Virus record (IMG/VR): IMGVR_UViG_3300042291_001557
Span: 36,257-100,256 of that record
Reading direction: 5' to 3' (one strand)
DNA length: 64,000 nucleotides
DNA from: a virus
Positions 51,205 to 63,739 of the stretch are shown in pieces. The stretch's first letter is position 1, and the number at the start of each line of letters is the position of its first letter. The notes under the pieces were generated by a model. It was not told the DNA's origin. It saw only the letters and a program-made list of their open reading frames with translations, and ran no database searches. A program made the position numbers and the translations under genes.

Positions 51205-51247
51205 GTTTCCCTGTCTGTCACCCGGTGGCGTATCGGCTGATAGGGAA

Positions 51248-51277
51248 AGATTAACCTTCCCTACGGACGACTTACAA
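51248..51277 (-). promoter_or_regulatory. Cassette promoter 2 (tandem with 1)
   Basis: TTGTAA gtcgtccgtagggaaggt TAATCT. Confidence 0.8.
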
Positions 51278-51281
51278 GCTT

Positions 51282-51785: not shown

Positions 51786-51816
51786 TTGTTACTTCTTTCT
51801 AGTAGTTCTTGTTTGG

Positions 51817-51846
51817 ATTCTACCTGGCCCTACGGACGGCTTACAG
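51817..51846 (-). promoter_or_regulatory. Cassette promoter 3
   Basis: CTGTAA gccgtccgtagggccagg TAGAAT. Confidence 0.8.
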
Positions 51847-52086
51847 AATTTATTCGAATATTACATAATTCTCGAGGGGTGTGTCATAGTTTCTGGGGTC
51901 ATCCACCACCGTCAGTTAAATTCGGACTCTGAGTCAGGGCCTATTCGAGAAATATTCGGAAATTTGATTTTTTTACTGGGCCGGCCGCTGCTACGTAGTG
52001 AATTTTATTCACCGTCTAGACAATCACTTCGGCCCGAGCCCCGCCCTCTACCCGGGAACCGGGGCTCAGGAGAGGAAAAGTGCCGG

Positions 52087-52341
52087 TCACCTTTTCTTGT
52101 GGTAATCAATTGCCCGGGTATCCATCTTTCCATCTTCCAACCAGGCGTCGAACATCTCGTTGATGACCTGCAGTAGTCGACTTGATGAGATATTCCATTC
52201 AACTAGGTTCTCTGCGAACCTTCCGCTGGAGTAATCATCAAGAATTACTACCATTGCCTCAGCTCCCGTTGTTGCCAAGGTGTAATAGTTTTCCTCTAGG
52301 AGCCCCATTAATTCCTTTTTCTTGATTTTCTTTTCAAGCAT
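52087..52341 (-). CDS. Hypothetical protein
   Basis: Overlaps upstream gene, same strand. Confidence 0.6.
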   Translation of the reverse strand: MLEKKIKKKELMGLLEENYYTLATTGAEAMVVILDDYSSGRFAENLVEWNISSSRLLQVINEMFDAWLEDGKMDTRAIDYHKKR

Positions 52342-52576
52342 CTGGCTCTTCTTTCACTAGTTCTGCATATTCTAGAGCAGAATCCATAATCCACTGGTTG
52401 ACATCGTTACCAGCATTTTCCCACTCATCAAACTCCTTACAGACTAGAGCCCACCCTTCTTGGGTGAGTTCTAGCCCGTCCATGTTTTCGAACTGTGGTT
52501 TATCCCACCACAGAATGCACAGTTCTTCATCAGGGGAATAGCGACTTAGCATCTCGATGATTTGTTTGATAATCAC
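52334..52576 (-). CDS. Hypothetical protein (paralog of 54106..54366)
   Basis: PDEEL...W..K...W..V...F shared. Confidence 0.6.
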   Translation of the reverse strand: MIIKQIIEMLSRYSPDEELCILWWDKPQFENMDGLELTQEGWALVCKEFDEWENAGNDVNQWIMDSALEYAELVKEEPDA

Positions 52577-53190
52577 AACAACGACGCTTCTTTCAGGAAT
52601 TCACAGTATTGGGTAAAAATTGCGTCGCTTTGCGCTTCTTTCCATGCTTCGTACTTGTCAATGGACTCATAGTCGTCGTAATCAACTTCTCCCTCGTATT
52701 CGCATGGCTCATACATAGACTGAAAGACCGTGTCGCCTTTGAGGTACGCCTCAGTGCCTGCAAAGAAGCCAGCCTCTTCGTCATAGTCAAAGGTGAAGAG
52801 CAGTTCAGGAAAGAGCGTAGAGACCTTTAGGAAGCCTGCATCGGCTGGACCCCATGCAGTTTGGTAGCGCATGACAACTTCCCACGAGCCGTTAGCAAGT
52901 TGCATCGGGTGTCCGATGTCAGTGTCGCAATCGCCCCACTTGGTACCCCAATTATCGTATGACCAGTCATACCAATCCTTGTAGCCGTACTTGGCAGTGT
53001 TGGACTCTTGCTGTTTGCGATGTTCATCGGCTTTGTCGTCTCCGACATAGCCAGCAACTGTCTCGTGCAGTTCTGCAGGGCAAGGTACATAGGACTCGAG
53101 AATTCGGGAATCCTTGATTCCGTCAATGAATCGCTGTACTTCTGCTGGCGAGCCTTTTACGCTCAGTGTGGTTGATACCCAATTTGGCAT
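52573..53190 (-). CDS. YubB/DUF1281-like ferredoxin-fold protein
   Basis: MPNW..T.L...G, WYDW...NWGTKW, TAWGP, Y.EE..FF.G. Confidence 0.75.
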   Translation of the reverse strand: MPNWVSTTLSVKGSPAEVQRFIDGIKDSRILESYVPCPAELHETVAGYVGDDKADEHRKQQESNTAKYGYKDWYDWSYDNWGTKWGDCDTDIGHPMQLANGSWEVVMRYQTAWGPADAGFLKVSTLFPELLFTFDYDEEAGFFAGTEAYLKGDTVFQSMYEPCEYEGEVDYDDYESIDKYEAWKEAQSDAIFTQYCEFLKEASLL

Positions 53191-53224
53191 GCTGTGTTCT
53201 TTCTAGTAGTGGTGAACAATGTTT

Positions 53225-53254
53225 AGATTAGTTGGTCCTACGGATGGCTTACAA
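53225..53254 (-). promoter_or_regulatory. Cassette promoter 4
   Basis: TTGTAA gccatccgtaggaccaac TAATCT. Confidence 0.85.
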
Positions 53255-53255
53255 G

Positions 53256-53534
53256 TTAGATGAAAGCAACTTCTATTGCGATTTCATCCTGCATTCCACA
53301 CTTGTCATCATTGGCTTCAAGCCAATCCTGAATCTCGTCGGTGATTTCTTGCCAGCCCTTGTCCCAGAAGCCGTTGTTGTTGAGAAAGTCGTACAACTCG
53401 TTCGGGTCAGGCAACTCTCGGAACTCCACAGGGAACTTCTCATCAGGGATGGAGAAGTAGTCCCACTTGGCGTAGGTCGGACCTTCGGGGTACGAGACCT
53501 CGGTAAGGATTCTTATGTAGTGGTCAACGCTCAT
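53256..53534 (-). CDS. Acidic hypothetical protein
   Basis: ATGA overlap with upstream gene, GAGGAG SD. Confidence 0.6.
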   Translation of the reverse strand: MSVDHYIRILTEVSYPEGPTYAKWDYFSIPDEKFPVEFRELPDPNELYDFLNNNGFWDKGWQEITDEIQDWLEANDDKCGMQDEIAIEVAFI

Positions 53535-53719
53535 TCTGACTCCTCTGTTGTGATGTCCCATGGGTGTGTGTCCCATTCTGATTGACCGTCAAGGTCTAAT
53601 GACTTGAGTTGGTCGTTGTTGAACGAGTAGTAGATAGAGAGAGCCTCTTCTTCGGTCTCTGCCTCAATCTCATAGTCGTGGTTGATGGATTCTGTTACTC
53701 GGAGTGTAAATTTCTTCAT
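53531..53719 (-). CDS. Small acidic protein (leaderless)
   Basis: MKKF.L.V.E.....YEIEAETEEEA pattern; ATG 6 nt after -10. Confidence 0.65.
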   Translation of the reverse strand: MKKFTLRVTESINHDYEIEAETEEEALSIYYSFNNDQLKSLDLDGQSEWDTHPWDITTEESE

Positions 53720-53725
53720 GCCTTC

Positions 53726-53755
53726 ACCTTACTTTTACCTACGGGCGACTTACAA
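53726..53755 (-). promoter_or_regulatory. Cassette promoter 5
   Basis: TTGTAA gtcgcccgtaggtaaaag TAAGGT. Confidence 0.85.
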
Positions 53756-53849
53756 ATTGTCATCCACCACCGTTGAATAAAAAAGGGCTAGGGCTAAGTC
53801 GTAAATACAGAAAGCTGGATTTCTGACTAAACGCGCAGCGTGGTCAGAA

Positions 53850-54119
53850 TCACTCTTCGTGGTGAGGGGCGTCTTGAGCCCCGTCCCGGTTGGCCTGCAG
53901 ATATGTCGAATAGTTCATTTCGAACAATTGGTCAATTATTTCGGCCAGTTCGCCGCCGGACCGCCGGACGAATGGGTCCCATACCAAGATGCGCTTGTCC
54001 ACATACTCAACCAGTGTGGGGATATCCATGATGTCAACATCCGTTGGGTATGCAGAGAGCACGAACGAGACCGCATTTGTCATGAATGCTTTCTTTATTT
54101 CGTCTTCAGACCAAGGCAC
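53850..54119 (-). CDS. Hypothetical protein
   Basis: AGGAG SD; operon context. Confidence 0.55.
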   Translation of the reverse strand: MPWSEDEIKKAFMTNAVSFVLSAYPTDVDIMDIPTLVEYVDKRILVWDPFVRRSGGELAEIIDQLFEMNYSTYLQANRDGAQDAPHHEE

Positions 54120-54366
54120 CGAGTTTTTCTCCTACTAGTTTATAAATCTCTTGATGGACATCAGCCCATGAACTGGTTAGGGCATTAGCCCACTTTTCGT
54201 TCTCAAATATAGAGACTACATCATTCCACTCCATCGGAGCAAGCGTGTCATAGTCGCCATCGTCTCTGATTCCCAGCGGAAAGTCGTCTTTTGTGAACCA
54301 CACACAGACGAGCTCTTCGTCGGGGTCCATATCGGACATGTGTCTAGCAATGTCTTTTGCCTTCAT
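54106..54366 (-). CDS. Hypothetical protein (paralog of 52334..52576)
   Basis: TAATG coupling; PDEEL...W..K. Confidence 0.6.
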   Translation of the reverse strand: MKAKDIARHMSDMDPDEELVCVWFTKDDFPLGIRDDGDYDTLAPMEWNDVVSIFENEKWANALTSSWADVHQEIYKLVGEKLGALV

Positions 54367-54677
54367 TAGAAGACCTGGTCCACTGTGTAGTGCTTCATAC
54401 TAAGAACCCAAGCGAGAACATCGCTCTGCCAGCCTGAATAGGCTTTCAGTGGGAGGGTGACGTCACTACTATCGTGACCAACAATGTATGAAAGTGCCAT
54501 TGAATAGTTTCCACGAGGGTTGTAATGGAGTGTGTAATAGACCTGACCATTGTTGCCAGCGGTTGCTAGCAGTTGGTAGTGCTTTTGTGTCCTGTTCGCA
54601 TGAAAGCGGACTTCTAGTGGTGTGGAATCGCCAAAGTTTGCTAAGGCGTCCCAGTGGAGTTGATAATCGTTGCTCAT
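54366..54677 (-). CDS. Hypothetical protein (leaderless)
   Basis: ATG 54677 is 7 nt after -10. Confidence 0.6.
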   Translation of the reverse strand: MSNDYQLHWDALANFGDSTPLEVRFHANRTQKHYQLLATAGNNGQVYYTLHYNPRGNYSMALSYIVGHDSSDVTLPLKAYSGWQSDVLAWVLSMKHYTVDQVF

Positions 54678-54684
54678 GTGGTCC

Positions 54685-54714
54685 ATCTTATTTCACCCTA
54701 CGTGCGGCTTACAA
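54685..54714 (-). promoter_or_regulatory. Cassette promoter 6
   Basis: TTGTAA gccgcacgtagggtgaaa TAAGAT. Confidence 0.85.
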
Positions 54715-54743
54715 GTTCCAGAGGACCCGTACCGGGGCTCGGC

Positions 54744-54773
54744 AAAGAGAAAGGGCAGGATTTCTCCTGCCCT
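54744..54773 (-). terminator. Intrinsic terminator
   Basis: AGGGCAGGA-4 nt-TCCTGCCCT hairpin followed by TTCTCTTT on minus. Confidence 0.7.
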
Positions 54774-54808
54774 GACCTTCGGTGTTGGGGGCTTGCGCCC
54801 CCTCAACC

Positions 54809-55231
54809 TCATTTGATAAAGCGAGCCACGCCCTTGTAGGTGCTTGTGTTGATAGTTTCCTCGTCAGTCATTTTCAGGACTGCGATAGCGTTTTCCAGTT
54901 CCTCAATGTCTGATTTGAGTGACCAGTCGGCAGAGGAGATTTCAGGCTCTTTTGGTGACTTCACAGAAGCAGGGAACTCAACGGTGATTTCGTATTTGTT
55001 GTGTTCCTCGTTGTAACGGAAGTTGTGAGCCTTACTGACGGAAGTTACTTTTCCTTTGCCTGAACGAAACATCTCGGCAAGAGTGTCACGAAAGTCTGAT
55101 ACAGCCTTTTCGTGGTCTTTCCGAGCCTTTTCGTTACTGGCTACTTCTTTCTGACGCTCTGCGAGAGCCTTTGATAATGCGTCAATCACTTTCTTAGTGC
55201 TGACCTTTACGCTTATTGGTTTTTGTGCCAT
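54809..55231 (-). CDS. Lys-rich coiled-coil hypothetical protein
   Basis: Start MAQKP after ACTAGAAA leader. Confidence 0.65.
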   Translation of the reverse strand: MAQKPISVKVSTKKVIDALSKALAERQKEVASNEKARKDHEKAVSDFRDTLAEMFRSGKGKVTSVSKAHNFRYNEEHNKYEITVEFPASVKSPKEPEISSADWSLKSDIEELENAIAVLKMTDEETINTSTYKGVARFIK

Positions 55232-55271
55232 TTCCCTATTTCTTTCTAGTAGTGGTGGGTTGGTAATTACC

Positions 55272-55301
55272 ACCTTAGTTTGCCCTACGGAGGGCTTACA
55301 A
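55272..55301 (-). promoter_or_regulatory. Cassette promoter 7
   Basis: TTGTAA gccctccgtagggcaaac TAAGGT. Confidence 0.85.
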
Positions 55302-55338
55302 GTTTGGTCGGGGGCTCAGGCGAGCCCCGCCCCGGGAG

Positions 55339-55542
55339 CTAGCCGGCAACCTCTTCCATTGTGTCTTGGTTGTAAATCGAGTTACATCGCCCACACACAT
55401 AGTGGAGACCATCCCATTCGTCGGGTGTTGGTTCAACAATTGTTCCGTCTTTCAAGCATGTCTCAAATCCGTCTAGGTGTGGGTTGTTCCCACAATCACA
55501 GACGAACCAATCAAAGGTGCTTTCTTTCAAGTTCAGAGCCAC
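55339..55542 (-). CDS. Small Cys-rich protein
   Basis: CDCGN.P..DGF..C...G...EP....W....YVC.RC. Confidence 0.65.
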   Translation of the reverse strand: MALNLKESTFDWFVCDCGNNPHLDGFETCLKDGTIVEPTPDEWDGLHYVCGRCNSIYNQDTMEEVAG

Positions 55543-55545
55543 GAA

Positions 55546-56013
55546 TTACCACGAACTCTGATAGGCGAAAGTCCACTCATCGGAAATCTTGGAAAGAGCG
55601 TTGTCAATAATTTCCACGGTGGATTCCAAGTCCTTGTAATACCATTCGTCATAGTCGGTGCTACCAAAGAAGAAGCCCGATGATGTCGGAAGGTGTTCGC
55701 TAGCGAGAGCATGGTTACCTAGAACCATCTTGCAAATAGTGCGCAGTTCTTCCAGTTTCTCAATGGGGACATAAGCCTCACGACAATCGTCATTACCGTC
55801 TTGACAGTTCTGCACGAACCAGTCATGAATGGCGTTCGCCTTTCTCCAGTAGCCAATCTTCACTTGACATTGGATAGAGGGAGTGTCTTTCTCCATGAAG
55901 TTAGTAACTCCAATTGCGTTAGCAACCGTGTGAAACCGTTTGTTCATTTCTTCCCCTCTCCATTCCATAGGTGAGAGGTAATTTTTTGCGTATAAGTATT
56001 GGTCTAATCCCAT
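55546..56013 (-). CDS. Conserved phage protein (MGLDQY...YWRKANAIH.WF type)
   Basis: MGLDQYL, YWRKANAIHDWF, LPT..GFFFG...YD.WY, YQSSW; ATG 7 nt after -10. Confidence 0.75.
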   Translation of the reverse strand: MGLDQYLYAKNYLSPMEWRGEEMNKRFHTVANAIGVTNFMEKDTPSIQCQVKIGYWRKANAIHDWFVQNCQDGNDDCREAYVPIEKLEELRTICKMVLGNHALASEHLPTSSGFFFGSTDYDEWYYKDLESTVEIIDNALSKISDEWTFAYQSSW

Positions 56014-56020
56014 GTCTGCC

Positions 56021-56050
56021 ACCTTACTAGTGCCTACGGACGGCTTACAA
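56021..56050 (-). promoter_or_regulatory. Cassette promoter 8
   Basis: TTGTAA gccgtccgtaggcactag TAAGGT. Confidence 0.85.
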
Positions 56051-56175
56051 ATTCTCTTCCACCACCGTCAGATAAGGGAGAGCCCTCATGGCCGGCTATC
56101 GCGTGCGTGGATAGATTTATCCGTTTTCTTGCGATACTTTCCCAGCTCAGATTCGAGTCGGGGCTCAGGGGCCGA

Positions 56176-56424
56176 TTAGAAGCCGGCACGCCGAGAGTCT
56201 CTTGCCAACCTAAGACGGTCTGTCTCACCAAGTCCGCCCCAGACTCCAAAGTTCAGTGCGTTGTCAGTTGCGTACTGCAGGCAGTCGGCAGAGACAGGGC
56301 AAGTCGAGCAAACTTTCTTGGCTTGCTTGAGTTCCGTATTTGACGAAGGGAAAAACACAGACTTATCCATGTCTTTACAGTTTGCCTGCTCAACCCAATT
56401 ACGTTCGTACAGTGCCATACTCAT
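56176..56424 (-). CDS. whiB: WhiB family transcriptional regulator (second copy)
   Basis: W.EQANC...D..VFFP, AK.VC..CPV..DCL.YA, GVWGG..E..R. Confidence 0.92.
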   Translation of the reverse strand: MSMALYERNWVEQANCKDMDKSVFFPSSNTELKQAKKVCSTCPVSADCLQYATDNALNFGVWGGLGETDRLRLARDSRRAGF

Positions 56425-56849
56425 TAGTAGAGCCCCAATTCTTCACGCTCATCGTCCGAGACGGTGCGCAAGGTGCTTGCGCTACCCATTGCATCGTGGT
56501 GACTGAGGGAATACTCAACACGGTCACTAAATACCTTGTAGGTCATACGCCAGTCACTGCGGACTGTCATGCCTTCAATTAGGTCAGCGACATTCTTGGC
56601 GTGAAAATACCCAGAGACATTGCGATTCCATAGTCTCAAGTCCTCAACCTTCCACCAGTTGGTCTCATTGGAGTCACGAAGTTCCTCGGTAATCATCGCA
56701 AAGTCCTCAACAGCGAAGTCCCAACAGTCTCCGTAGCAGGTAGAACCGTACTCGGTGTCAATTGACATTGTTTCGCCGTCTTCCTCGTAGGTGAGGCAGG
56801 TGCATGAATTGGTAATTTCGCCAGTGGCGATAGGTGTATCTAGTTCCAT
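56424..56849 (-). CDS. Hypothetical protein (leaderless)
   Basis: ATG 7 nt after -10; SHHD motif. Confidence 0.65.
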   Translation of the reverse strand: MELDTPIATGEITNSCTCLTYEEDGETMSIDTEYGSTCYGDCWDFAVEDFAMITEELRDSNETNWWKVEDLRLWNRNVSGYFHAKNVADLIEGMTVRSDWRMTYKVFSDRVEYSLSHHDAMGSASTLRTVSDDEREELGLY

Positions 56850-56854
56850 GTCTT

Positions 56855-57091
56855 TCACCCTACTTGCTCATACGGACGGCTTACAAATTGGTCAAGCGTG
56901 GCGGAGCCCCGGGGGCTTATCTCGCCACGCTTCATTAGTTCTTCGTGAGCAAGGTCAGCAATGGCAGTTGACAGGTCGGTGTCGTCAGTCTCGTAATACA
57001 TTCCAGTAACTGCCTTGTACAGGTCGGTAGTGGGGAGAGTTGGCACTCTCCCCATCCATACCGACTTATAGAAACGGTAGTAATTGTTCAT
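56855..57091 (-). CDS. Hypothetical protein
   Basis: TAATG coupling; C-terminus reads through promoter 9. Confidence 0.5.
   Translation of the reverse strand: MNNYYRFYKSVWMGRVPTLPTTDLYKAVTGMYYETDDTDLSTAIADLAHEELMKRGEISPRGSATLDQFVSRPYEQVG
56857..56886 (-). promoter_or_regulatory. Cassette promoter 9
   Basis: TTGTAA gccgtccgtatgagcaag TAGGGT. Confidence 0.75.
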
Positions 57092-57561
57092 TACTTTCCT
57101 GCGTCACCAAGTGAGAGCATTGCCTCGGCAAGTGAGCCAGTTGCGTTTCCTTCGTCAATGCTTACTTCGTCAGTATCTCCGAAACGGATAATGCTGGTCA
57201 TGGTGAGGTCACTACGGCGGATGAACGCACAAAGACGCACACGGCGACGCTGGGCGTGTTCCGAAGGGCGACCCTCAACCGAACCGTCAGCATTGAGTGG
57301 GGCAGCCCATCCAGAAGTGACTACGGCAAGAATGTCAGAAGAACGAACAGAGAACGGTGTCTCGGCAATCGCTTCGTCAATCAGTTCGTAAACATCAGGA
57401 TTAGAGAGAACAGGCTCAACCGTCACTCCGTCATTCTCGGCACGGACAACAAGTAGGTGAGCCTCGCTCATGTACAGGCTGTCTTGTTCGTTGGTGAACG
57501 CACCCAAGAAGTCATGAACAAAGAGTTCCGCCTCGGTTGCGATATTGGTAAGTGTTGTCAT
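57091..57561 (-). CDS. Hypothetical protein (paralog of 59458..59889)
   Basis: DVY.L.D, T.GWAAPLN.DG....PS.H..RRRV.L, G.A.G.LA.AM; AAAGGGA SD. Confidence 0.7.
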   Translation of the reverse strand: MTTLTNIATEAELFVHDFLGAFTNEQDSLYMSEAHLLVVRAENDGVTVEPVLSNPDVYELIDEAIAETPFSVRSSDILAVVTSGWAAPLNADGSVEGRPSEHAQRRRVRLCAFIRRSDLTMTSIIRFGDTDEVSIDEGNATGSLAEAMLSLGDAGK

Positions 57562-57597
57562 TAGTTTCCCTTTCATGGGGTCGTTGTTACAAATACC

Positions 57598-57627
57598 AAC
57601 TTACTTGCCCCTACGCGCGACCTACAA
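57598..57627 (-). promoter_or_regulatory. Cassette promoter 10
   Basis: TTGTAG gtcgcgcgtaggggcaag TAAGTT. Confidence 0.8.
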
Positions 57628-57693
57628 GTTTGCCCCGAGGCCCCGTTGTCCGGCACAGTAAGTACGAGTGCCGGGGCTCAAAAAGAAAAAGAG

Positions 57694-57831
57694 CTACTCA
57701 ACTTCTAATGGTTGAATGTTGTATCTACTGCGCATGAGTTCATAGCAGTCGTCACAGAGAAAACTATCGCTCTCTTCTATGCGTTCAGACAGGTAAGAAG
57801 GTTCATTGCCACACTTGCGGCAAGTACCCAC
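57694..57831 (-). CDS. 45-aa zinc-finger peptide (not in ORF track)
   Basis: GTG overlaps upstream TAG; CRKCG...LCDDCY. Confidence 0.55.
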   Translation of the reverse strand: MGTCRKCGNEPSYLSERIEESDSFLCDDCYELMRSRYNIQPLEVE

Positions 57832-58109
57832 TACTCACCCCCACGCTTCTTGTAGACGACTAGTGCTTCCTCTAGGGTTGAGCAGTAATCGCCTGTCTCG
57901 GCGTAGAAGCCCTCAGGGCGAGCCACGACATTCCAAATTGCGTACGGGTGAAACGCTGTCTCGTCTACGCAAACTGCTACCCAAGTGGCGTAGCAGTCAC
58001 CTACGACACGCTCATGGAGTTTCGTGTAGGCGATAACCATTCGCTGTGTGTCTCCGACCTTGTCGCCAATTCGGATTTCGCTGTATTCGTTTAGTGTGTT
58101 TGTTTCCAT
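57831..58109 (-). CDS. Hypothetical protein (leaderless)
   Basis: ATG 6 nt after -10; HPYA.W...G.Y..TLEEA...Y..R. Confidence 0.65.
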   Translation of the reverse strand: METNTLNEYSEIRIGDKVGDTQRMVIAYTKLHERVVGDCYATWVAVCVDETAFHPYAIWNVVARPEGFYAETGDYCSTLEEALVVYKKRGGE

Positions 58110-58115
58110 GTCTCC

Positions 58116-58145
58116 ACCTTACTGCTCCCTACGGAGCACTTACAA
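58116..58145 (-). promoter_or_regulatory. Cassette promoter 11
   Basis: TTGTAA gtgctccgtagggagcag TAAGGT. Confidence 0.85.
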
Positions 58146-58173
58146 GTCAGGGGTTTAGCCCCGGCTTCCTTCT

Positions 58174-58374
58174 CTACATACATACGTAGTCGAGAAAACC
58201 CGGGCCATTTCCTTCGGGGTCTGCCATTACAACAACAGTAGAACCATCGGTGAACTCAATCACTGTCGTTTCTACTGGGTCGCAATACCACATGAACTCT
58301 TTGATTTCATCGGCAGTGAGGCTCGTGACCTTTGCGATGGTCTTTCCGACAATGTCATCCACATAGTGTTTCAT
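58174..58374 (-). CDS. Small conserved phage protein
   Basis: VGKTI..V..LT..E.....W......VIEF.DG......DPEGNGPG.L. Confidence 0.65.
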   Translation of the reverse strand: MKHYVDDIVGKTIAKVTSLTADEIKEFMWYCDPVETTVIEFTDGSTVVVMADPEGNGPGFLDYVCM

Positions 58375-58721
58375 TACTGCTCCTTCAAGAAGTCTGAGAT
58401 TTCAGAGACAAGAGCCTTCTTGCCCTGCTTGTACGCTTCTTCAAGCATTGCGCTTTCAAGTTCCGCAATCCGAGCAAAACCCGCCACGAACAACATCATC
58501 ATCTCGTTTATTGCTTCTTTATCCTCATCGGTCATCTTCTTGACAGGTACTTCAAGGTCGTCAATGTCGTCAATCTCGTCAAGCGCATCAGGGTCAATGT
58601 TGTCAAGGTCAGGTCGGACTCCGCTACTGCGGAAAAGTATCAACGCTTCAATGATTACGGACAATTCCAACCTAGTGAACTCTCGGTCAAGTTGGGCGAT
58701 GGGTTCAATGTCGTCAAACAT
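58374..58721 (-). CDS. Acidic hypothetical protein
   Basis: TGATG coupling to upstream gene. Confidence 0.6.
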   Translation of the reverse strand: MFDDIEPIAQLDREFTRLELSVIIEALILFRSSGVRPDLDNIDPDALDEIDDIDDLEVPVKKMTDEDKEAINEMMMLFVAGFARIAELESAMLEEAYKQGKKALVSEISDFLKEQ

Positions 58722-59170
58722 CACTTGACCCCCAACCATGCGTTGAAGTCGTCATCTGTCATCGGCACAATCTTTGGAGTGAAGTCCATTTTGCTAATCA
58801 TGTTGGTGAGCATTGCTCGGTTCGCTTCTTCATTGTTCACAACTACCGTTCGTGCGAAGAAGTCAGCAGAGAAGAACAAGTCAGGCAGGTCGTAGTCGTA
58901 GCCGTCACTCTCGCCCTTGTCGTTGAGTGTGCCGACTAGCAACACATCTCCTGCGATGGGGTTGCCGTAGAGAACGGTAGCCGTGACATTGGGTTCAAGC
59001 CCAATGAGCAGACCCTCGTCATGGACATACATGGTCACTGCTCCGTGAGCCAATGAGACACAATCAAACCACCCACCGATTAGGTCGTTGATGACCGTGT
59101 GTGCGTTCTCCTTGGGGAGAATAATGGTGCGTGGTTCGCCTGTCGCTGGAATGAAAAGTGCTTTCGTCAT
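58721..59170 (-). CDS. DUF3846-like protein (leaderless)
   Basis: LIGGWFD.V....MYV.DEG....LEPN..AT......I.GDV.L.G. Confidence 0.7.
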   Translation of the reverse strand: MTKALFIPATGEPRTIILPKENAHTVINDLIGGWFDCVSLAHGAVTMYVHDEGLLIGLEPNVTATVLYGNPIAGDVLLVGTLNDKGESDGYDYDLPDLFFSADFFARTVVVNNEEANRAMLTNMISKMDFTPKIVPMTDDDFNAWLGVK

Positions 59171-59176
59171 GAGAAC

Positions 59177-59206
59177 AATTTACATCAGCCTACGCACGAC
59201 TTACAA
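59177..59206 (-). promoter_or_regulatory. Cassette promoter 12
   Basis: TTGTAA gtcgtgcgtaggctgatg TAAATT. Confidence 0.85.
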
Positions 59207-59457
59207 ATTAGCCTCATCCACCACCGTCACTAAAAAACCGTTGCCCTTCAGCCCTGTCACCTCAAAGAAAAACGGAATAAACGCATTAGTAATAGTTGTA
59301 CTGTGCAACTATCGGAACAGGGGTAGCCCCGCACCCCTGTCAGCCCACCGGGGCTCAGCTCAGATAATTCTGAATAGTAGGTCTAGGAGATACCAAAAGA
59401 TGGTGACTGCGCTCACCGTGACGAGCGAGAGTAACAAGATTTCTAGCGTTGTGCGTT

Positions 59458-59889
59458 TCATACGAACAGCCTAGACCGAAGCCAGCAGTCTGCCATTGCA
59501 TCTGCGAGCGCACCCGAAGCAGAGCCCGGGTCGGTAACGATTTCTTCCTCGTCTGTGAAAGCGAGAGCCGAGCCAGTACTTTCGGCAGTAATTGTCGTAA
59601 TGAGAGAGACACGCCTACGCTCTGGGTGGTCAGACGGTGCGCTATCTATGTCACCATCTTCGTTGAGTGGGGCTGCCCACCCTGTCGTGTGGATAGACAT
59701 ACCTACGAAGTTCTCAAAGTTGTAGGAAGCGTCAAGCAGGTCGTACACATCTAACGCCCAAGCAATTTTTACAAACTGCTCTTGTTCCGTGACTCCGTAG
59801 AGTTCTGCTCTTTTTTTATTGAAGCAGTCTGGGTCGTTGTCTAATGCGAATTGGAGTTGGTCGTGGGCGAGGAGTTCTGCTGATTTCAT
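59458..59889 (-). CDS. Hypothetical protein (paralog of 57091..57561; leaderless)
   Basis: ATG 59889 is 6 nt after -10; GWAAPLN.DG motif. Confidence 0.7.
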   Translation of the reverse strand: MKSAELLAHDQLQFALDNDPDCFNKKRAELYGVTEQEQFVKIAWALDVYDLLDASYNFENFVGMSIHTTGWAAPLNEDGDIDSAPSDHPERRRVSLITTITAESTGSALAFTDEEEIVTDPGSASGALADAMADCWLRSRLFV

Positions 59890-59895
59890 AACCCC

Positions 59896-59925
59896 AGAGT
59901 ACTTCACCCTACGGGTGGCATACAA
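59896..59925 (-). promoter_or_regulatory. Cassette promoter 13
   Basis: TTGTAT gccacccgtagggtgaag TACTCT. Confidence 0.75.
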
Positions 59926-59996
59926 GTTTCTAAACTTGCGAAACTTAGCCCCGTTCCCCTTCCTCGTTGTGATTCCTTGACTTTTTTTGTGACCCA

Positions 59997-60239
59997 TCAG
60001 ATTCCTTCCAACGCCATTGCTGCGCCTCGGAGAGTGTGGGCCCGTTCGGCTGCTTTGAGCAGTTGTACCGCTTGCTGAGCAAGGTAGGTGGCTGTGAACT
60101 CATTGACCTGCGGGTCGAAACTCGCTAAGGACCGCTTGATGTCCTCGTAGGTCGCTTGCGCTCCTAGTTGGGCTTCGTGTGCCAGTTGGTTCAGGTAGTC
60201 GGATGTTGTCTTGGGTTGCGTGGTCGCTGTTGTTTCCAT
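59997..60239 (-). CDS. Small helical protein (leaderless)
   Basis: ATG 60239 is 6 nt after -10. Confidence 0.65.
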   Translation of the reverse strand: METTATTQPKTTSDYLNQLAHEAQLGAQATYEDIKRSLASFDPQVNEFTATYLAQQAVQLLKAAERAHTLRGAAMALEGI

Positions 60240-60245
60240 ACACAC

Positions 60246-60275
60246 AACCTATCAAACCCTACGAACGACTTACAA
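60246..60275 (-). promoter_or_regulatory. Cassette promoter 14
   Basis: TTGTAA gtcgttcgtagggtttga TAGGTT. Confidence 0.85.
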
Positions 60276-60281
60276 CCCCAA

Positions 60282-60297
60282 TGTTTCACGTGAAACA
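60282..60297. promoter_or_regulatory. parS: parS-type palindrome TGTTTCACGTGAAACA
   Basis: Exact match to the canonical bacterial chromosomal parS consensus; palindrome extends to 20 bp (60280-60299); intergenic. Confidence 0.8.
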
Positions 60298-60328
60298 TTC
60301 TGTACCGGCCACTCGGGGCTCAGGGACG

Positions 60329-60368
60329 AAAAACCCCACTCGCCTGTCGTGTCCGAGGGCGAGTGGGG
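60329..60368 (-). terminator. Terminator-like hairpin after KTSC gene 1
   Basis: 11-bp stem CCCCACTCGCC/GGCGAGTGGGG, 13-nt loop, TTTTT on minus. Confidence 0.7.
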
Positions 60369-60382
60369 AATCCGTTGGGGTC

Positions 60383-60679
60383 TTAGTTCTTGGTGAACTC
60401 GTAGTGAGGCTTGATGTGTTCGTTCACGAACTTACCGAAACTCTCGGCAACCATCAGGTTGAATGCCACAAAGGCAGGAACGCCTTGGTAGTAATACTTT
60501 GCCCCACCTTTGTAGGTGATGACCATTACTGATTCGTCAGTGAGGTAGTGAGCCTCGGTGATGGCTGATGATTCTGCTGGCAGGAAGATAACGCTTCCAA
60601 ACCTGCTGATGTGGAATGTACCCTTGCCCGAAGGAAGTGGGTTATTGACTGTTGTTTCAAATGTCGCTGTTGTGTTCAT
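60383..60679 (-). CDS. KTSC domain protein 1 (leaderless)
   Basis: SSAI....Y......ITYKGG..Y.Y.GVP......L..AESFGKFVN.HIKP.Y. Confidence 0.8.
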   Translation of the reverse strand: MNTTATFETTVNNPLPSGKGTFHISRFGSVIFLPAESSAITEAHYLTDESVMVITYKGGAKYYYQGVPAFVAFNLMVAESFGKFVNEHIKPHYEFTKN

Positions 60680-60685
60680 GTCTCC

Positions 60686-60715
60686 ACCTTATCCCAACCT
60701 ACGGAAGGCTTACAA
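60686..60715 (-). promoter_or_regulatory. Cassette promoter 15
   Basis: TTGTAA gccttccgtaggttggga TAAGGT. Confidence 0.85.
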
Positions 60716-60791
60716 ATCAGGAAACCCTTACTGGCGAGCCCCGGCCCCCCAGTAAAAGGGCCACCAGCATTGCTGCCAGTGGCCCCAGTGG

Positions 60792-60968
60792 TTAGTCGTT
60801 CTGGTACTTGTCGTCTTCTTCGATGAACTCATTCATCTTTACAACCAGTTCCTCTGCGTAGGGGCGTTCCCCTGTGTAGAAGGTCTGGGGGTCATCGTAG
60901 GCCCTGTAGGTGGCTGCCTCGTAGGCCTCCAGTAGCAGGGTGTATGGGATTGTCACTGTTTTGCTCAT
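60792..60968 (-). CDS. 58-aa hypothetical protein (not in ORF track; leaderless)
   Basis: ATG 6 nt after -10; MSKTVTIPYTLLLEAYEAATYRAYDDPQ...; GGGCCAC/GTGGCCC hairpin plus TTTT downstream. Confidence 0.65.
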   Translation of the reverse strand: MSKTVTIPYTLLLEAYEAATYRAYDDPQTFYTGERPYAEELVVKMNEFIEEDDKYQND

Positions 60969-60974
60969 ACGGAC

Positions 60975-61004
60975 ATCTTACCCCAGACTCCGGAGGGCTT
61001 ACAA
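60975..61004 (-). promoter_or_regulatory. Cassette promoter 16
   Basis: TTGTAA gccctccggagtctgggg TAAGAT. Confidence 0.8.
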
Positions 61005-61080
61005 GCTCGGTTTGTAGCCCCGTACGTATGTTCGTACCGTTGCTTGTTGATACGGACTCCCGGGGCTCGGTAGCCCAAAG

Positions 61081-61115
61081 CCCCACCAACCTGTCGTGTC
61101 CGAGGGTTGGTGGGG
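61081..61115 (-). terminator. Hairpin after KTSC gene 2
   Basis: 11-bp stem CCCCACCAACC/GGTTGGTGGGG with the same 13-nt loop as 60334-60368. Confidence 0.6.
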
Positions 61116-61131
61116 TCTCCGTGGAGGAGGG

Positions 61132-61422
61132 TTAGGAACCTTGCCAGAACTCGTAGTTCGGCTTGATGTGGGTGTTGATGAACTTCCCGAAACTTTCGGT
61201 AACCAGCAAGTGGAACACCACGGTGGTAGGAACTTCACGGTAGTAGTAGGTCTTTCCACCCGTGTAGGTGACCGAGAGAGTTTCGTCTTGGTATTGAGCC
61301 ATCTCAATTGCTGATGACTCAGGGTAGATAATTAGCGCACCGTTTTTCAGAACGCTGAATTTTCCGTTTCCTGCTGGGAGTTGTGTTTTGTGTGTGTGGG
61401 GGAATGTCGCTGTTGATGTCAT
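61132..61422 (-). CDS. KTSC domain protein 2 (leaderless)
   Basis: SSAI..A.Y..ETL.VTY.GG..Y.Y..VP......L...ESFGKFIN.HIKP.Y. Confidence 0.8.
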   Translation of the reverse strand: MTSTATFPHTHKTQLPAGNGKFSVLKNGALIIYPESSAIEMAQYQDETLSVTYTGGKTYYYREVPTTVVFHLLVTESFGKFINTHIKPNYEFWQGS

Positions 61423-61428
61423 ACCCAA

Positions 61429-61458
61429 ACTTTACCACCCCCTACGGAGGGCTTACAA
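61429..61458 (-). promoter_or_regulatory. Cassette promoter 17
   Basis: TTGTAA gccctccgtagggggtgg TAAAGT. Confidence 0.85.
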
Positions 61459-61500
61459 ACCTGCCCCTATCACAGCGGGGCTGTAGGGGCAGGCCGGAAG

Positions 61501-61530
61501 TTGTAGGCCGTGCGTAGTATTTGATAAAGT
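61501..61530 (+). promoter_or_regulatory. Cassette promoter 18 (only plus-strand copy)
   Basis: TTGTAG gccgtgcgtagtatttga TAAAGT. Confidence 0.75.
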
Positions 61531-61536
61531 GGACTT

Positions 61537-61725
61537 ATCGGCAAAGGACACCGAGTGGAAACCAAAGACTGAGGCAACTCGGCGACTGGGAGTGCCACAA
61601 ATATGCAGGCAAGCCCTATCTGTCGGATTGGTTCACGACCGGAAACCTCCCTCATCTCTCTGAGGGTCAATGGTGAATCACAGAGAACTAGAACCCTAGC
61701 CCTCAGCAGGCTGGGGTTCTTTTTT
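61537..61725 (+). ncRNA. Candidate approx. 190-nt structured non-coding RNA
   Basis: Bounded by promoter 18 and an intrinsic terminator; no start codon at the expected TSS; several stems seen by eye. Confidence 0.55.
61691..61725 (+). terminator. Intrinsic terminator
   Basis: GAACCCTAGCC-7 nt-GGCTGGGGTTC then TTTTTT. Confidence 0.8.
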
Positions 61726-61748
61726 GCCACCGGAGCCCCGGCACGGGT

Positions 61749-61787
61749 AAAAGAAAAAGCCACCCGAAGGTGACTCTTTCTTTCTTT
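61749..61787 (-). terminator. Intrinsic terminator (possibly bidirectional)
   Basis: AGTCACC-TTCG-GGTGGCT then TTTTCTTTT on minus. Confidence 0.75.
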
Positions 61788-61851
61788 GCTCAACCAGTAC
61801 AGCGACTAACTGGGAGCAAGAACTTTCTCGCTGTCGCTGTTCTACGAATTG

Positions 61852-62031
61852 TTATCCGTAGTGTTTGCTCACCCATTCAGGTGAATTGGTATCTTCTTCT
61901 TCGTAAGTGAAGAAGGCGATATTTTTTCTAAGCCATTGAACCGTGGTGTATGCGCCGACTGTGAATATTCCCACGCCTGCGCACTTGACCAAGAACCAAG
62001 TGACGATAATAAATGCTTTTGCTGTTTCCAT
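61852..62031 (-). CDS. 59-aa membrane protein (not in ORF track; leaderless)
   Basis: ATG 6 nt after -10; METAKAFIIVTWFLVKCAGVGIFTVGAYTTVQWLRK... Confidence 0.65.
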   Translation of the reverse strand: METAKAFIIVTWFLVKCAGVGIFTVGAYTTVQWLRKNIAFFTYEEEDTNSPEWVSKHYG

Positions 62032-62037
62032 GTCTTT

Positions 62038-62067
62038 ACCTTAGTTCAGCCTACGAACGGCTTACAA
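62038..62067 (-). promoter_or_regulatory. Cassette promoter 19
   Basis: TTGTAA gccgttcgtaggctgaac TAAGGT. Confidence 0.85.
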
Positions 62068-62338
62068 GTTTCCGTTCGTCTACTTGCGTGTAGAAGGGAA
62101 CAAGTGGCTCTCTGTCCGTAGGTTGTGGGTAGTTGTTGTTGAAGTAGTTGGTAGCGAACTCGCCCTCGTGGAGAGTGACCTCAGGGGTATCCTGTGTCAT
62201 GTCCACGATGAGTAAAGCGTCTGCTTCCTTCATGTAAGCCTGCCCACCGTTGAAATGGTAAAGCCTTCCTTCTTGTGTTGCTGTGTCTATGACCTGAGCC
62301 CACTCGGTGTGGGTGGTCGCTGTGTGTGTTGTTTTCAT
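62051..62338 (-). CDS. Hypothetical protein (leaderless)
   Basis: ATG 6 nt after -10. Confidence 0.65.
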   Translation of the reverse strand: MKTTHTATTHTEWAQVIDTATQEGRLYHFNGGQAYMKEADALLIVDMTQDTPEVTLHEGEFATNYFNNNYPQPTDREPLVPFYTQVDERKLVSRS

Positions 62339-62344
62339 ACCTTC

Positions 62345-62374
62345 AACTTAGCCGAGACTACGGGCGACTTACAA
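62345..62374 (-). promoter_or_regulatory. Cassette promoter 20
   Basis: TTGTAA gtcgcccgtagtctcggc TAAGTT. Confidence 0.85.
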
Positions 62375-62409
62375 ATTTGCCCCAATGGAGAGCGGGGCTC
62401 ATTTGGGGC

Positions 62410-62616
62410 AAAAAGAAAGACCTACCGCCCCACCTCCGACACTAGGGCTAGCACCCACTTAAACTAGAGCAGTAATCGCGCGTAGAGGACGGATGGACTG
62501 TGGCGGATGCGTGATGGTCGTACGCCCATCAGAGGCTTGCTGTCCAGAGCCTTATCCTGCGGAGGGACTGGTGCGGTTAAGTTGTATCGGAGGGGAGGCG
62601 GTAAGCCTCTCTCACA
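62410..62616 (-). ncRNA. Candidate approx. 205-nt structured non-coding RNA with 27-bp closing stem
   Basis: Promoter 21 upstream; 62611-62585 pairs with 62441-62415 at 26 of 27 positions including 5 G-U pairs valid only on minus; U-tract follows; only a 12-codon ORF at the TSS. Confidence 0.7.
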
Positions 62617-62622
62617 AAGACC

Positions 62623-62652
62623 AACTTACTACCCCCTACGGACGACCTACAA
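62623..62652 (-). promoter_or_regulatory. Cassette promoter 21
   Basis: TTGTAG gtcgtccgtagggggtag TAAGTT. Confidence 0.85.
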
Positions 62653-62688
62653 GTTGGCAAAGTAGCCCCGCAGCTCTATGCTTGCCGC

Positions 62689-62883
62689 ATGAGTTCAGAA
62701 GATTACACCAAAGATGATTTAGGTCGAGACTTGTTCTTGATGGTCAAGGCCGGACTACTTGATGTCTCCATGAGAGAAGATGGCGAGTGGGTCTATAACG
62801 TCAGTGAGTCTTCATTGCTGCTCTCGGAAGAAGAGAAGGCAGACATTATTAGCCGGCTGGACGATTACGACGACATCTATTAG
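62689..62883 (+). CDS. Small acidic protein (leaderless, divergent)
   Basis: TTGGCA-17-TATGCT then 6 nt to ATG; L..MVKAGLLDV..REDGEWVY. Confidence 0.6.
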   Translation: MSSEDYTKDDLGRDLFLMVKAGLLDVSMREDGEWVYNVSESSLLLSEEEKADIISRLDDYDDIY

Positions 62884-62906
62884 CCGGTCGGGGCTCAGGG
62901 GTGTTG

Positions 62907-63149
62907 TTACACTTCTTCCCCACAGGCAGGACACCCACCAACTGCGTACATCTCTCCACAGTTACGGCAGGCGTTCGGGTGTTCTTCATAGAACGAGAAC
63001 GCTGGTTTCCGATAGACGATTCCGTTGATTTGGTATCCACCCTTTGAGGCGTTATACGCATAGTGAGTACCGAGCTTTTCAGCCCACTTGATTATTTCGT
63101 CAAGTTCTTCTTGTGTCACTTCTTCTATTGTCGCTGTTCTCTTTGGCAT
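62907..63149 (-). CDS. Small protein with C-terminal Cys4 finger (leaderless)
   Basis: CRNCG......CPACG; ATG 63149 is 6 nt after -10. Confidence 0.65.
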   Translation of the reverse strand: MPKRTATIEEVTQEELDEIIKWAEKLGTHYAYNASKGGYQINGIVYRKPAFSFYEEHPNACRNCGEMYAVGGCPACGEEV

Positions 63150-63155
63150 ACCCAT

Positions 63156-63185
63156 ACCTTACTTCACCCTACGCACGGCTAACAA
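63156..63185 (-). promoter_or_regulatory. Cassette promoter 22
   Basis: TTGTTA gccgtgcgtagggtgaag TAAGGT. Confidence 0.8.
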
Positions 63186-63231
63186 ATCAGTGGCAAGCCC
63201 CGGCCTTCCACTGATTCCGGAGCGTGTCGTG

Positions 63232-63459
63232 TTAGTCGTCCTTTCTTTCTTCGTTCATCATCTTCAGGTGACGACTCATTTGTTCCGATAGTTCGTCTTC
63301 GTTATCGACGTACTCACCGTCTCCAAGATAAGCAGAGACCCACTTACCTGTCTCTTCGTCAAAGCAGGTTCCTTCAGTAAGAGATTCCTCTTCTTGTTCG
63401 GTGTCCCACTCCCAAGAGTTGGTTGCTGCGTCAAATGAAATAATAAAGTAGTGCTTCAT
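63232..63459 (-). CDS. Acidic hypothetical protein (leaderless)
   Basis: ATG 63459 is 7 nt after -10. Confidence 0.65.
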   Translation of the reverse strand: MKHYFIISFDAATNSWEWDTEQEEESLTEGTCFDEETGKWVSAYLGDGEYVDNEDELSEQMSRHLKMMNEERKDD

Positions 63460-63466
63460 ACGCCCC

Positions 63467-63496
63467 ACCTTACTTTGGACTACGCACGACCTACAA
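63467..63496 (-). promoter_or_regulatory. Cassette promoter 23
   Basis: TTGTAG gtcgtgcgtagtccaaag TAAGGT. Confidence 0.8.
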
Positions 63497-63522
63497 GCCA
63501 TACCTAGCCCCGTCGTACCCGG

Positions 63523-63567
63523 TAGAAAGTATCCGGACACTGGGGGAAGCGTCCGGATACTTTTCTA
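63523..63567 (-). terminator. Long inverted repeat after 44-aa gene
   Basis: TAGAAAGTATCCGGAC ... GTCCGGATACTTTTCTA. Confidence 0.6.
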
Positions 63568-63568
63568 G

Positions 63569-63703
63569 CTACCGTGAGTAACGGAAGCGTAGATAGCGAA
63601 GGTGTGCCTTCGCCTGAATGAGACGGAAGTAGGTGTAACCCTCGTTCTGTCCGGTCTTGATGATGAATGGATTACGCATATGTTTCCCTTTCGCTGTTTC
63701 CAT
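63569..63703 (-). CDS. 44-aa basic peptide (not in ORF track; leaderless)
   Basis: ATG 6 nt after -10; METAKGKHMRNPFIIKTGQNEGYTYFRLIQAKAHLRYLRFRYSR. Confidence 0.5.
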   Translation of the reverse strand: METAKGKHMRNPFIIKTGQNEGYTYFRLIQAKAHLRYLRFRYSR

Positions 63704-63709
63704 GAACAC

Positions 63710-63739
63710 ACCTTATCTCAACCTCCGGACGGCTAACAA
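63710..63739 (-). promoter_or_regulatory. Cassette promoter 24
   Basis: TTGTTA gccgtccggaggttgaga TAAGGT. Confidence 0.75.

Follow-up and report, generated by a model that had tools for sequence, protein, structure and literature searches.

In this paper we report that a short word, ACAGCGA(C), recurs close to the predicted 5' ends of early transcripts in a stretch of viral DNA of 64,000 nucleotides (nt) (IMG/VR record IMGVR_UViG_3300042291_001557, positions 36,257 to 100,256; below, the window means this stretch at its full length), and that its complement, (G)UCGCUGU, lies in the 3' untranslated region (UTR) of another gene and, in related phages, in the loops of terminator-type hairpins. 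Based on comparison of sequences and modelled folds, we put at about 0.57 the probability that the word and the loop act by antisense pairing. According to this reading, ACAGCGA(C) would be an address tag private to the phage, placed within the first 2-22 nt of some early transcripts; the majority of these are predicted to be leaderless and so offer no Shine-Dalgarno (SD) sequence that a regulator could target. The complement would stand on a hairpin loop in the 3' UTR of another early mRNA, before or within the terminator, and this 3' RNA, either within the mRNA or as a processed fragment, would pair loop-to-tag with the 5' ends, which would block ribosome loading at the 5'-terminal AUG and/or alter 5'-end-dependent decay, so that the tagged genes would be controlled as a set by one RNA. 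In the lineage of the window a tandem cis tag, 11 nt past the stop codon, may mask the seed, and since the seed would be masked in this way, the regulator would need unmasking, for example by processing which removes the cis copy. In this scheme the transcription starts and the RNA species are inferred, and so are the pairing itself, the way in which it would act and the unmasking.

Relatives of the phage were gathered by searches with phage proteins and short patterns, and the comparison covers six lineages: the window, L001/L002, L007/L008, L013, L047 and L050.

The 5' word in the window

A sequence-only reading of the window had noted five copies of ACAGCGAC near the gene starts 60239, 60679, 61422, 62338 and 63149, always read as ACA GCG AC, partial copies at 63703 (ACAGCGAA) and 62031 (ACAGCAAA), and the fact that two of the five genes are paralogs. 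All these observations hold, the paralogs being the two KTSC-domain genes 60383..60679 and 61132..61422. The window contains eight copies of ACAGCGAC against 1.7 expected, a number reached by none of 100 shuffles, and the 100-kb contig contains ten, seven of them within 3 kb (60223-63137). Counting by position across the genome, which had been proposed earlier, bore out the clustering. The conserved core of the word is the 7-mer ACAGCGA. The copies and the promoter array that precedes them are as follows (aa, amino acids).

60223..60230, minus strand: ACAGCGAC, at +10 of the predicted leaderless gene 59997..60239 (80 aa, no family)
60663..60670, minus strand: ACAGCGAC, at +10 of the predicted leaderless gene 60383..60679 (KTSC-domain, paralog 1)
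61406..61413, minus strand: ACAGCGAC, at +10 of the predicted leaderless gene 61132..61422 (KTSC-domain, paralog 2)
62316..62323, minus strand: ACAGCGAC, at +16 of the predicted leaderless gene 62051..62338 (95 aa)
63130..63137, minus strand: ACAGCGAC, at +13 of the predicted leaderless gene 62907..63149 (80 aa, Cys-rich C-terminus)
63691..63697, minus strand: ACAGCGA, at +7 of gene 63569..63703, followed by SD-like AAAGGGAAAC and a second in-frame ATG
60952..60959, minus strand: variant ACAGUGAC, at +10 of gene 60792..60968, wobble-compatible
51188..63739, minus strand: promoter-like array of ~23 units TTGTAAGnCnnnCGTAGG-N6-TAAGGT, recognised by repetition and geometry

In 17 of the ~23 units the ATG stands 5-7 nt past the -10-like hexamer, typically as TTGTAAGnCnnnCGTAGG-N6-TAAGGT-N6-ATG, and because of this spacing the mRNAs with ATG right after the -10 are predicted to be leaderless. 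The promoter units which serve the six genes with the word start at 60275, 60715, 61458, 62374, 63185 and 63739. A sigma-70 scan with a generic consensus called none of the cassette promoter sites, so their assignment is based on repetition and geometry.

Orthologs and strains show how the individual copies behave. L001 keeps the word in the ortholog of 60383..60679 despite a 3-nt deletion, has lost it from the ortholog of 61132..61422 through synonymous GCG>GCA, and has the exact word in the ortholog of 60792..60968, in whose family GCG alternates with GUG; the duplex of ACAGUGAC with the seed, containing one G-U pair, is calculated at -12.8 kcal/mol vs -14.7 kcal/mol for the exact 8-bp word. 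L007 carries the same word as gene 63569..63703, but in a true 5' leader. In a strain variant of gene 62051..62338 a synonymous change at 62324 adjoins the intact word, and in gene 62907..63149 the sequence ACAGCGACAA matches all 10 nt of UUGUCGCUGU, the loop variant of the relatives.

Selection on nucleotides across six lineages

Near the predicted 5' end, ACAGCGA is found in about a third of the early transcripts of the six lineages, starting at +2 to +22 with the mode at +7. Its 5'-proximal enrichment has a Fisher p of 1e-5 to 4e-20 per lineage, and when the 7-mers within 30 nt of the transcript start are ranked by recurrence, it belongs to the top three in 6/6 lineages, being first in four. 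All 49 of the 49 5'-proximal copies have the sense orientation, including those behind promoters on the opposite genome strand. The position of the word tracks the transcript 5' end and not the start codon: in L007, L013, L047 and L050 it also occurs in 5' leaders at ~+6, with SD and ATG 20-35 nt downstream.

The Thr-Ala-Thr peptide at the N-terminus, offered earlier as an alternative signal, is rejected. At leaderless starts the word is found in each of the three reading frames (28, 10 and 2 cases), and the copies in other frames or in leaders code for Asn-Ser-Glu/Asp or Gln-Arg, or are untranslated. GCG is the rarest Ala codon (12.8%), and ACA-GCG makes up only 7 of 263 Thr-Ala pairs (2.7%) in gene bodies, outside gene starts. 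Two ortholog pairs keep the word across frame-changing indels, MKTNSEQ vs MTTAKSTQ (MKTNSEQNVSRETFE vs MTTAKSTQNVSRETFE) and MNSE vs METNSE, and synonymous sites in homologues give no sign of Thr-Ala-Thr kept with free codon choice. The use of all three frames, the presence in 5' leaders and the rarest Ala codon therefore argue for selection on nucleotides, and on this comparison we regard the word as selected in that form and tied to the transcript 5' end.

The surroundings of the word are far less constant. Promoter boxes are replaced wholesale between lineages while both the word and the loop sequence GUCGCUGU stay constant, and even lineages whose promoters are unrelated and whose proteins are 50% diverged have an identical word. 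What separates the -10 element, the ATG and the word varies among genes, which speaks against spread by simple gene conversion. These facts bear on an explanation which needs no specific partner, namely that the word is a by-product of unstructured C/A-rich starts that enhance leaderless translation and were spread with promoters by duplication or conversion, the complement being just a stem arm. The starts are indeed A/C-rich, ATGGAAACA recurs (ATGGAAA 17 times in 5' windows vs 2 elsewhere), CA-rich downstream sequences enhance leaderless translation (PMC9031893), the promoters are clearly homogenised within each phage, tags come and go among orthologs and ACAGCAA is a frequent variant. We nevertheless find this explanation improbable, as the G-C-G core is not of the C/A type, there are no conversion tracts, and L047/L050 repeatedly have the exact complement in a loop and not in a stem.

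A downstream-box reading, with the word pairing to 16S, was tried and set aside: UCGCUGU is absent from a panel of 97 full-length, mostly actinobacterial 16S genes, with a Hymenobacter sequence as the sole carrier.

The 3' UTR element of gene 61852..62031

In the window the complement lies behind a short gene whose own 5' end carries the non-matching ACAGCAA. The features of the element are the following.

61852..62031, minus strand: gene of a 59-aa predicted membrane protein, with the element in its 3' UTR
61828..61840, minus strand: cis word copies in tandem, ACAGCG-ACAGCG-A, 11 nt past the stop codon; predicted seed mask
61799..61806, minus strand: seed GUCGCUGU, complement of the 5' word, 26 nt further on from the cis copy
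61785..61822, minus strand: open-form hairpin UUGCUC-CCAGU / loop UAGUCGCUGU / ACUGG-UU-GAGCAA, which would display the seed
61799..61840, minus strand: closed form, with ACAGCGAC paired to GUCGCUGU around the inner hairpin AGCGAGA/UCUUGCU; predicted minimum free energy (MFE) fold
61745..61785, minus strand: predicted intrinsic terminator with a 16-bp stem, UUCG loop and U-tract; 3' end of the candidate RNA

The coordinates given earlier for the word (61833-61840, a copy within the tandem) and for its complement (61799-61806) proved correct. The switchable fold proposed with them stands in part: both foldings exist, but exposure of the seed is not favoured, since the closed form has the MFE of -22.4 kcal/mol vs -16.7 kcal/mol with the seed forced open, a difference of 5.7 kcal/mol. 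The same preference is seen in all four lineages folded. With the closed form as the MFE fold, the exposed seed would belong to an alternative fold only.

The element hardly varies among the window, L001, L002 and L007/L008, where it always stands behind the 59-aa gene, and its tandem cis copies are conserved in L001, L002 and L007/L008. Between the end of gene 61852..62031 and the element there is no cassette promoter box, and the segment shares its predicted intrinsic terminator with the parental mRNA. In natural strains represented by metagenome contigs, the spacer 61841-61851, which separates the cis copy from the stop codon, is exactly deleted and a 2-nt bulge at 61792 varies, and the word and the loop are untouched among the strain differences listed. 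The open-form hairpin corresponds to the terminator hairpins of L047/L050 described below.

Two observations were made beside the element. A plus-strand non-coding RNA at 61537-61725 was considered as a sponge of the seed and dropped, because its complementarity to the UTR hairpin is not above chance, the duplex energy being no better than that of 20% of shuffles. In L041 (13070-13110), a distant relative without the 5' tag system, GUGGUCGCUGU and ACAGCGACCAC form an 11-bp stem in which the word is paired with its own complement, as in the closed form of the window.

The complement on hairpin loops of related phages

Every intergenic sense-strand copy of the complement stands in the loop of a 3'-UTR hairpin. 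In L047 and L050 it occupies the apical loop of strong GC-rich terminator-type hairpins with U-rich tails, which follow immediately on the stop codons of three different open reading frames (ORFs). There are three such hairpins in L047, two of them in tandem, and two in L050, plus a third with the variant loop AGUCGCUG in L104. Their loops of 10-16 nt stand on 9-14 bp stems and leave the bases of the complement unpaired, whereas in the window these bases are unpaired only in the alternative fold. The complement is alone in these 5-6 terminator loops, with no sense copy nearby. The majority of the remaining terminators of these phages are capped by ordinary GAAA or UUCG loops, and the few sense-strand copies of the complement would fall into such loops by chance with a probability of 8e-6 in L103 and 1.6e-4 in L104.

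The exact 10-nt loop UUGUCGCUGU is carried by four hairpins of the L047/L050 group and is also the open-form loop of L002 and L008; that of the window and L001 is UAGUCGCUGU. The hairpins of the window, L001, L002 and L008 have a short CCAGU stem in common, while the stems of L047/L050 are unrelated to the window's and contain compensating changes. When eight hairpins are aligned, the five loop-closing pairs are 100% paired, three of the five change on both sides, and GUCGCUGU (columns 15-22) is invariant. The number of hairpins is 1-3 per phage against 6-14 tagged transcripts, and none of the five hairpin-bearing mRNAs (0/5) has the exact tag at its own 5' end. A scan for the hairpin scaffold with the loop left free found only the four known contigs, with none in the metagenome contigs. 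Matches of a fixed-loop scan in L004-L006, L097, L098 and L101 lie within coding sequence and were discarded as chance.

The numbers of hairpins and words also bear on an integron-like explanation, in which the word would be a crossover site for cassette exchange and the complement hairpin its recombination partner. It could refer to the array of single-gene cassettes, the content of which is shuffled between relatives, and to the likeness of a 5' word with a 3' hairpin complement to core and inverse-core sites as generally known. In integrons, however, each cassette has its own attC, whereas here the cassettes do not each have a complement-bearing hairpin, the other terminators being of the GAAA or UUCG type, and the word stands inside the coding sequence, downstream of the promoter and ATG. 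We regard this explanation as highly improbable.

Other word-loop pairs and the question of a binding protein

Placement in the 3' UTR was checked for ACAGCGA and the SD words, and for CUACUAC in L033/L034. CUACUAC is the dominant leader word of L029, L033 and L034, with 11-15 sense copies per locus vs one antisense, and each of these loci has a single sense-strand GGUAGUAG (GUAGUAG) in the 8-nt loop of a strong hairpin (L029:8430, L033:19390, L034:15077). The hairpins have two unrelated stems and follow right after the stop codon in L033 and L034; such loop placement would arise by chance with a probability of ~0.006-0.01 per locus. L049 and L105, which belong to the same contig, have no ACAGCGA; their early transcripts are mostly leadered and the dominant word is the SD GAAAGGG(G). 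Here an orthologous terminator after a 187-aa gene (L105:10557) has the loop CCCCCCUUUC, an anti-Shine-Dalgarno mimic which matches the SD GAAAGGGG of these early transcripts, although this loop placement is weak alone (p 0.07). Among orthologs of the 187-aa protein the terminator module follows the gene in only 3/73 loci, which leaves little material for loop covariation. In the window itself, the leadered cassettes 51161, 51806, 53210 and 55253 (minus strand) have a common leader, CCACUACUAGAAAGRA, ahead of the ATG, and a loop complementary to the CUACUAG word of this leader was not found in the 63%-complete contig.

With three words each having its complement on a loop, one RNA-pairing principle is simpler than three separate binding proteins. 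This weighs on the main rival explanation, already named in the sequence-only reading as a DNA operator near +10, according to which the word is bound by a conserved phage or host protein downstream of early transcription starts, blocking initiation or early elongation, and the inverted copies at gene ends are further sites. The word keeps one orientation relative to transcription and takes its position from the transcription start, not from the start codon, both of which fit an operator. Retention of the word while promoter boxes change would be expected with a conserved factor, the phages hold other repeated DNA boxes in both orientations, and this phage encodes WhiB-type regulators. The operator leaves the loop placement unexplained, however: the reverse copies are not scattered, every intergenic one standing in an RNA-type hairpin loop, on at least four unrelated stems with compensatory changes, and each of the two further word-complement pairs, which obey the same loop rule, would require its own DNA-binding protein. 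Moreover, the position of the word varies over ~20 nt and no candidate repressor was identified. The comparative data thus weaken the operator and we consider it unlikely; if true, an uncultured, ecologically dominant phage group would turn out to have a conserved repressor site at its early genes.

A protein could also bind the word as RNA. T4 RegA, a phage translational repressor, is a model for this explanation, in which a translational repressor, an RNase or a ribosome-associated factor, possibly a KTSC paralog encoded in the same sub-block, would recognise the word, while the UTR tandem would serve for autoregulation or as a decoy and the complement only as a mask. The word does behave as a single-stranded RNA element, being confined to one strand, tied to the 5' end and found in any frame; the UTR of the window has two tandem sense copies; and 2-3 KTSC paralogs are among the tagged genes and hence themselves tagged. 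For KTSC, RNA binding is presumably suggested by Pfam, but its solved structures are without a demonstrated RNA-binding function. TALE-repeat matches of the KTSC protein in PDB were dismissed as spurious, since they are sums of weak repeats with no significant stretch. Neither the display of the complement alone in the L047/L050 terminator loops nor the parallel CUACUAC/GGUAGUAG pair would be accounted for by such a protein, and in the closed form the tandem copies would be base-paired and unavailable to it. We therefore judge binding of the word as RNA to be decidedly unlikely.

Points which weigh against antisense pairing

Antisense pairing between loop and word, as proposed from the window, gains from the comparative conservation of both partners and loses by the folding of the window, and the following points count against it. 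The predicted probability that the seed is unpaired in the window is ~0, the closed form being present >99% of the time. In the window group, with its 5-bp closing stem, the loop placement is not significant alone (p ~0.17). Pairing would extend over 7-8 bp, only 7 bp for most targets of L008, with no extension in the window. Among tagged lineages the seed never varies, and with an invariant seed there is no base-by-base covariation, only replacement at the level of the whole system by other word-loop pairs. Within any one phage group the hairpins are paralogous and orthologous copies, and because they are related by descent, the statistics overstate their independence. In L013 nine transcripts are tagged, but no displayed complement was found within the fragment of 50 kb (31% complete), where near-complements are confined to coding sequence or to weak structures. 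Nor does every gene retain the word, the tags turning over between orthologs, as in the GCG>GCA change of L001.

One part of the mechanism is particularly restricted. Blocking of 70S loading, as first proposed, would fit the leaderless targets, but as the word follows the transcript 5' end and not the start codon, it cannot fit all leadered ones: in some leadered transcripts the tag stands 20-30 nt upstream of the SD, where simple occlusion of the ribosome site is inapplicable. The most specific picture, in which leaderless mRNAs with a private 7-nt tag in codons 2-6 are silenced or stabilised together by one loop, related phages swap word-loop pairs and the window is self-masked, is to our mind a serious possibility which falls somewhat short of an even chance.

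The phage, its presumed host and the promoter array

The window makes up the right-hand 64 kb of a linear viral record of 100,256 bp, which has a GC content of 47% and a CheckV completeness of 63%. It encodes virion and tail-fibre proteins, and a matching stretch is present in lake-water metagenomes from 18 studies. Two WhiB-family genes are found, at 56206-56397 (minus strand) within the early cassette array and at 43491-43682 (plus strand). As the WhiB family was confined to Corynebacterium among 14 control genomes, the host is likely an actinobacterium. DNA similarity search among deposited phages gave no match to this phage, the tRNA search of the window found none, and no Rfam family matched in the window or in L047/L050. 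Pfam and PHROGs returned no match for the 59-aa protein, most tagged proteins and the hairpin-bearing ORFs, and viral contigs contained no relatives of the protein of gene 62051..62338.

Each lineage has in its early promoters, 15-38 per phage, a particular box that separates the -35-like TTGT from the -10-like element, with six variants seen among the window, L001, L008, L013, L047, L050 and L105. The box is TTGTTAGTCGTGCGTAAC in L001/L002, TTGTCGGnnnGGGGTGGG in L007/L008 and TTGTyGGGTTGGGTAAG in L013; those of L047 (TGTAGCATGGGCTAGG) and L050 (TAGGAAACTCCAGCC), both distant contigs, are unrelated. Between the window and L001 the boxes differ although the coding sequences are nearly identical, and such differences suggest a lineage-specific co-evolving factor or concerted promoter evolution. 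The cassette promoter pattern, scanned over viral contigs, gave no match.

Several other elements of the array were noticed. The sole reversed cassette promoter (61501-61725, plus strand) drives ~190 nt of non-coding sequence to a clear terminator at 61690-61720 and is not present in L001, L002 and L008. Another promoter-driven non-coding unit, of ~205 nt (62400-62652, minus strand), starts with GUGAGAGAGGC...CGCCUC and belongs to no Rfam family; similar 5' ends follow cassette promoters in L008 (1058 and 2693), L047 (3671) and L050 (1064). The two KTSC paralogs end in terminators (60346-60358 and 61093-61105, minus strand) whose stems differ, CCCCACUCGCC as against CCCCACCAACC, but whose conserved 13-nt loop, CUCGGACACGACA, is identical and is also found in L012.

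Repeats which may act at the level of DNA are also present. The 16-nt box TCWTCCRCCACCGTCA, probably a DNA-level site, recurs at gene junctions across the phage superfamily, in many loci from L001 to L051. In the window it is found on the plus strand at 44581, 45330, 46459, 47214, 48207, 51899, 56055 and 59214, directly upstream of promoters and as the reverse complement on the coding strand; in L047/L050 it stands right behind stop codons, in the opposite orientation relative to transcription. A perfect 16-bp palindrome, the parS-like TGTTTCACGTGAAACA (60283-60298), is intergenic in the window and lies within the coding sequence of the gene for ...QNVSRETFE in L001 and L008. Finally, GAGCCCCG and its complement CGGGGCTC form ~10 repeats between terminators and the next promoter in the 51-64 kb region and in all related loci, often as small hairpins with C-rich loops, e.g. 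AGC-CCC-GCU.

Significance and comparison with known systems

Leaderless mRNAs are abundant in Actinobacteria, including mycobacteria. If antisense pairing of loop and word is true, it would be the first described RNA-based control of such mRNAs, by which the phage would coordinate its host-takeover regulon with one RNA, and possibly a general timing device of freshwater actinophages. It would also give synthetic biology a portable handle on leaderless genes, and the defined 7-nt tag with its 10-nt loop makes a directly testable pair for model actinobacteria. Control of leaderless translation by small RNAs (sRNAs), riboswitches or proteins is listed as unknown in a 2022 review (PMC9031893), and leaderless mRNAs are unmentioned in a 2025 review of phage sRNAs (PMC12197685).

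The closest actinobacterial likeness is s-SodF of Streptomyces coelicolor, an sRNA which is processed from the sodF 3' UTR and base-pairs to its target mRNA at the 5' end (PMC3919588). In both cases the regulator lies past a stop codon and pairs, or would pair, with the 5'-end region of another mRNA, and several features of 3'-UTR sRNAs of the s-SodF/CpxQ type are found in the phage element, namely position past the stop codon, no promoter of its own, a predicted shared terminator and a seed that is invariant while its surroundings vary. s-SodF has a 19-nt match to one leadered host target, proven by northern blots and mutations, whereas the putative phage RNA would use a loop seed of 7-8 nt against 6-14 mostly leaderless targets, with the tag within the coding sequence.

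Among phage RNAs, the c4 antisense RNA of P1/P7 has short complementary sequences, thought to lie in loops, which block translation starts (PMC12197685). In c4 a single transcript carries both the regulator and the sites complementary to it, a parallel to the cis copy of the phage UTR. However, c4 targets the ribosome-binding site (RBS) of one operon (icd-ant) and serves immunity of an enterobacterial phage, unlike the proposed regulon of early genes without RBS and with the RNA in a 3' UTR.

Loop-displayed seeds acting on many targets are also known from sRNAs of Gram-positive bacteria, 6C (Actinobacteria), RNAIII, RsaE and LhrC, in which they are C-rich and aimed at the Shine-Dalgarno sequence; an Hfq-type requirement is not known in actinobacteria. 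The loop CCCCCCUUUC of L049 is of this anti-SD type; GUCGCUGU differs from all of them in that it would target a private word in codons 2-6 of leaderless mRNAs. Another likeness is that to L5 stoperators, asymmetric DNA repressor sites which are intergenic, bound by gp71 and orientation-dependent. As with stoperators, many copies of a short asymmetric word are present in an actinophage in a single orientation to transcription, but here the word lies in the transcribed 5' region, in any frame, and its reverse copies are found only in RNA hairpin loops. The downstream box and the CA-rich enhancers of leaderless translation (Martin-Farmer and Janssen 1999, as cited in PMC9031893) are likewise short elements just past the 5'-terminal AUG, and the phage word differs from them in being one specific sequence with its complement in the phage's own hairpin loops.

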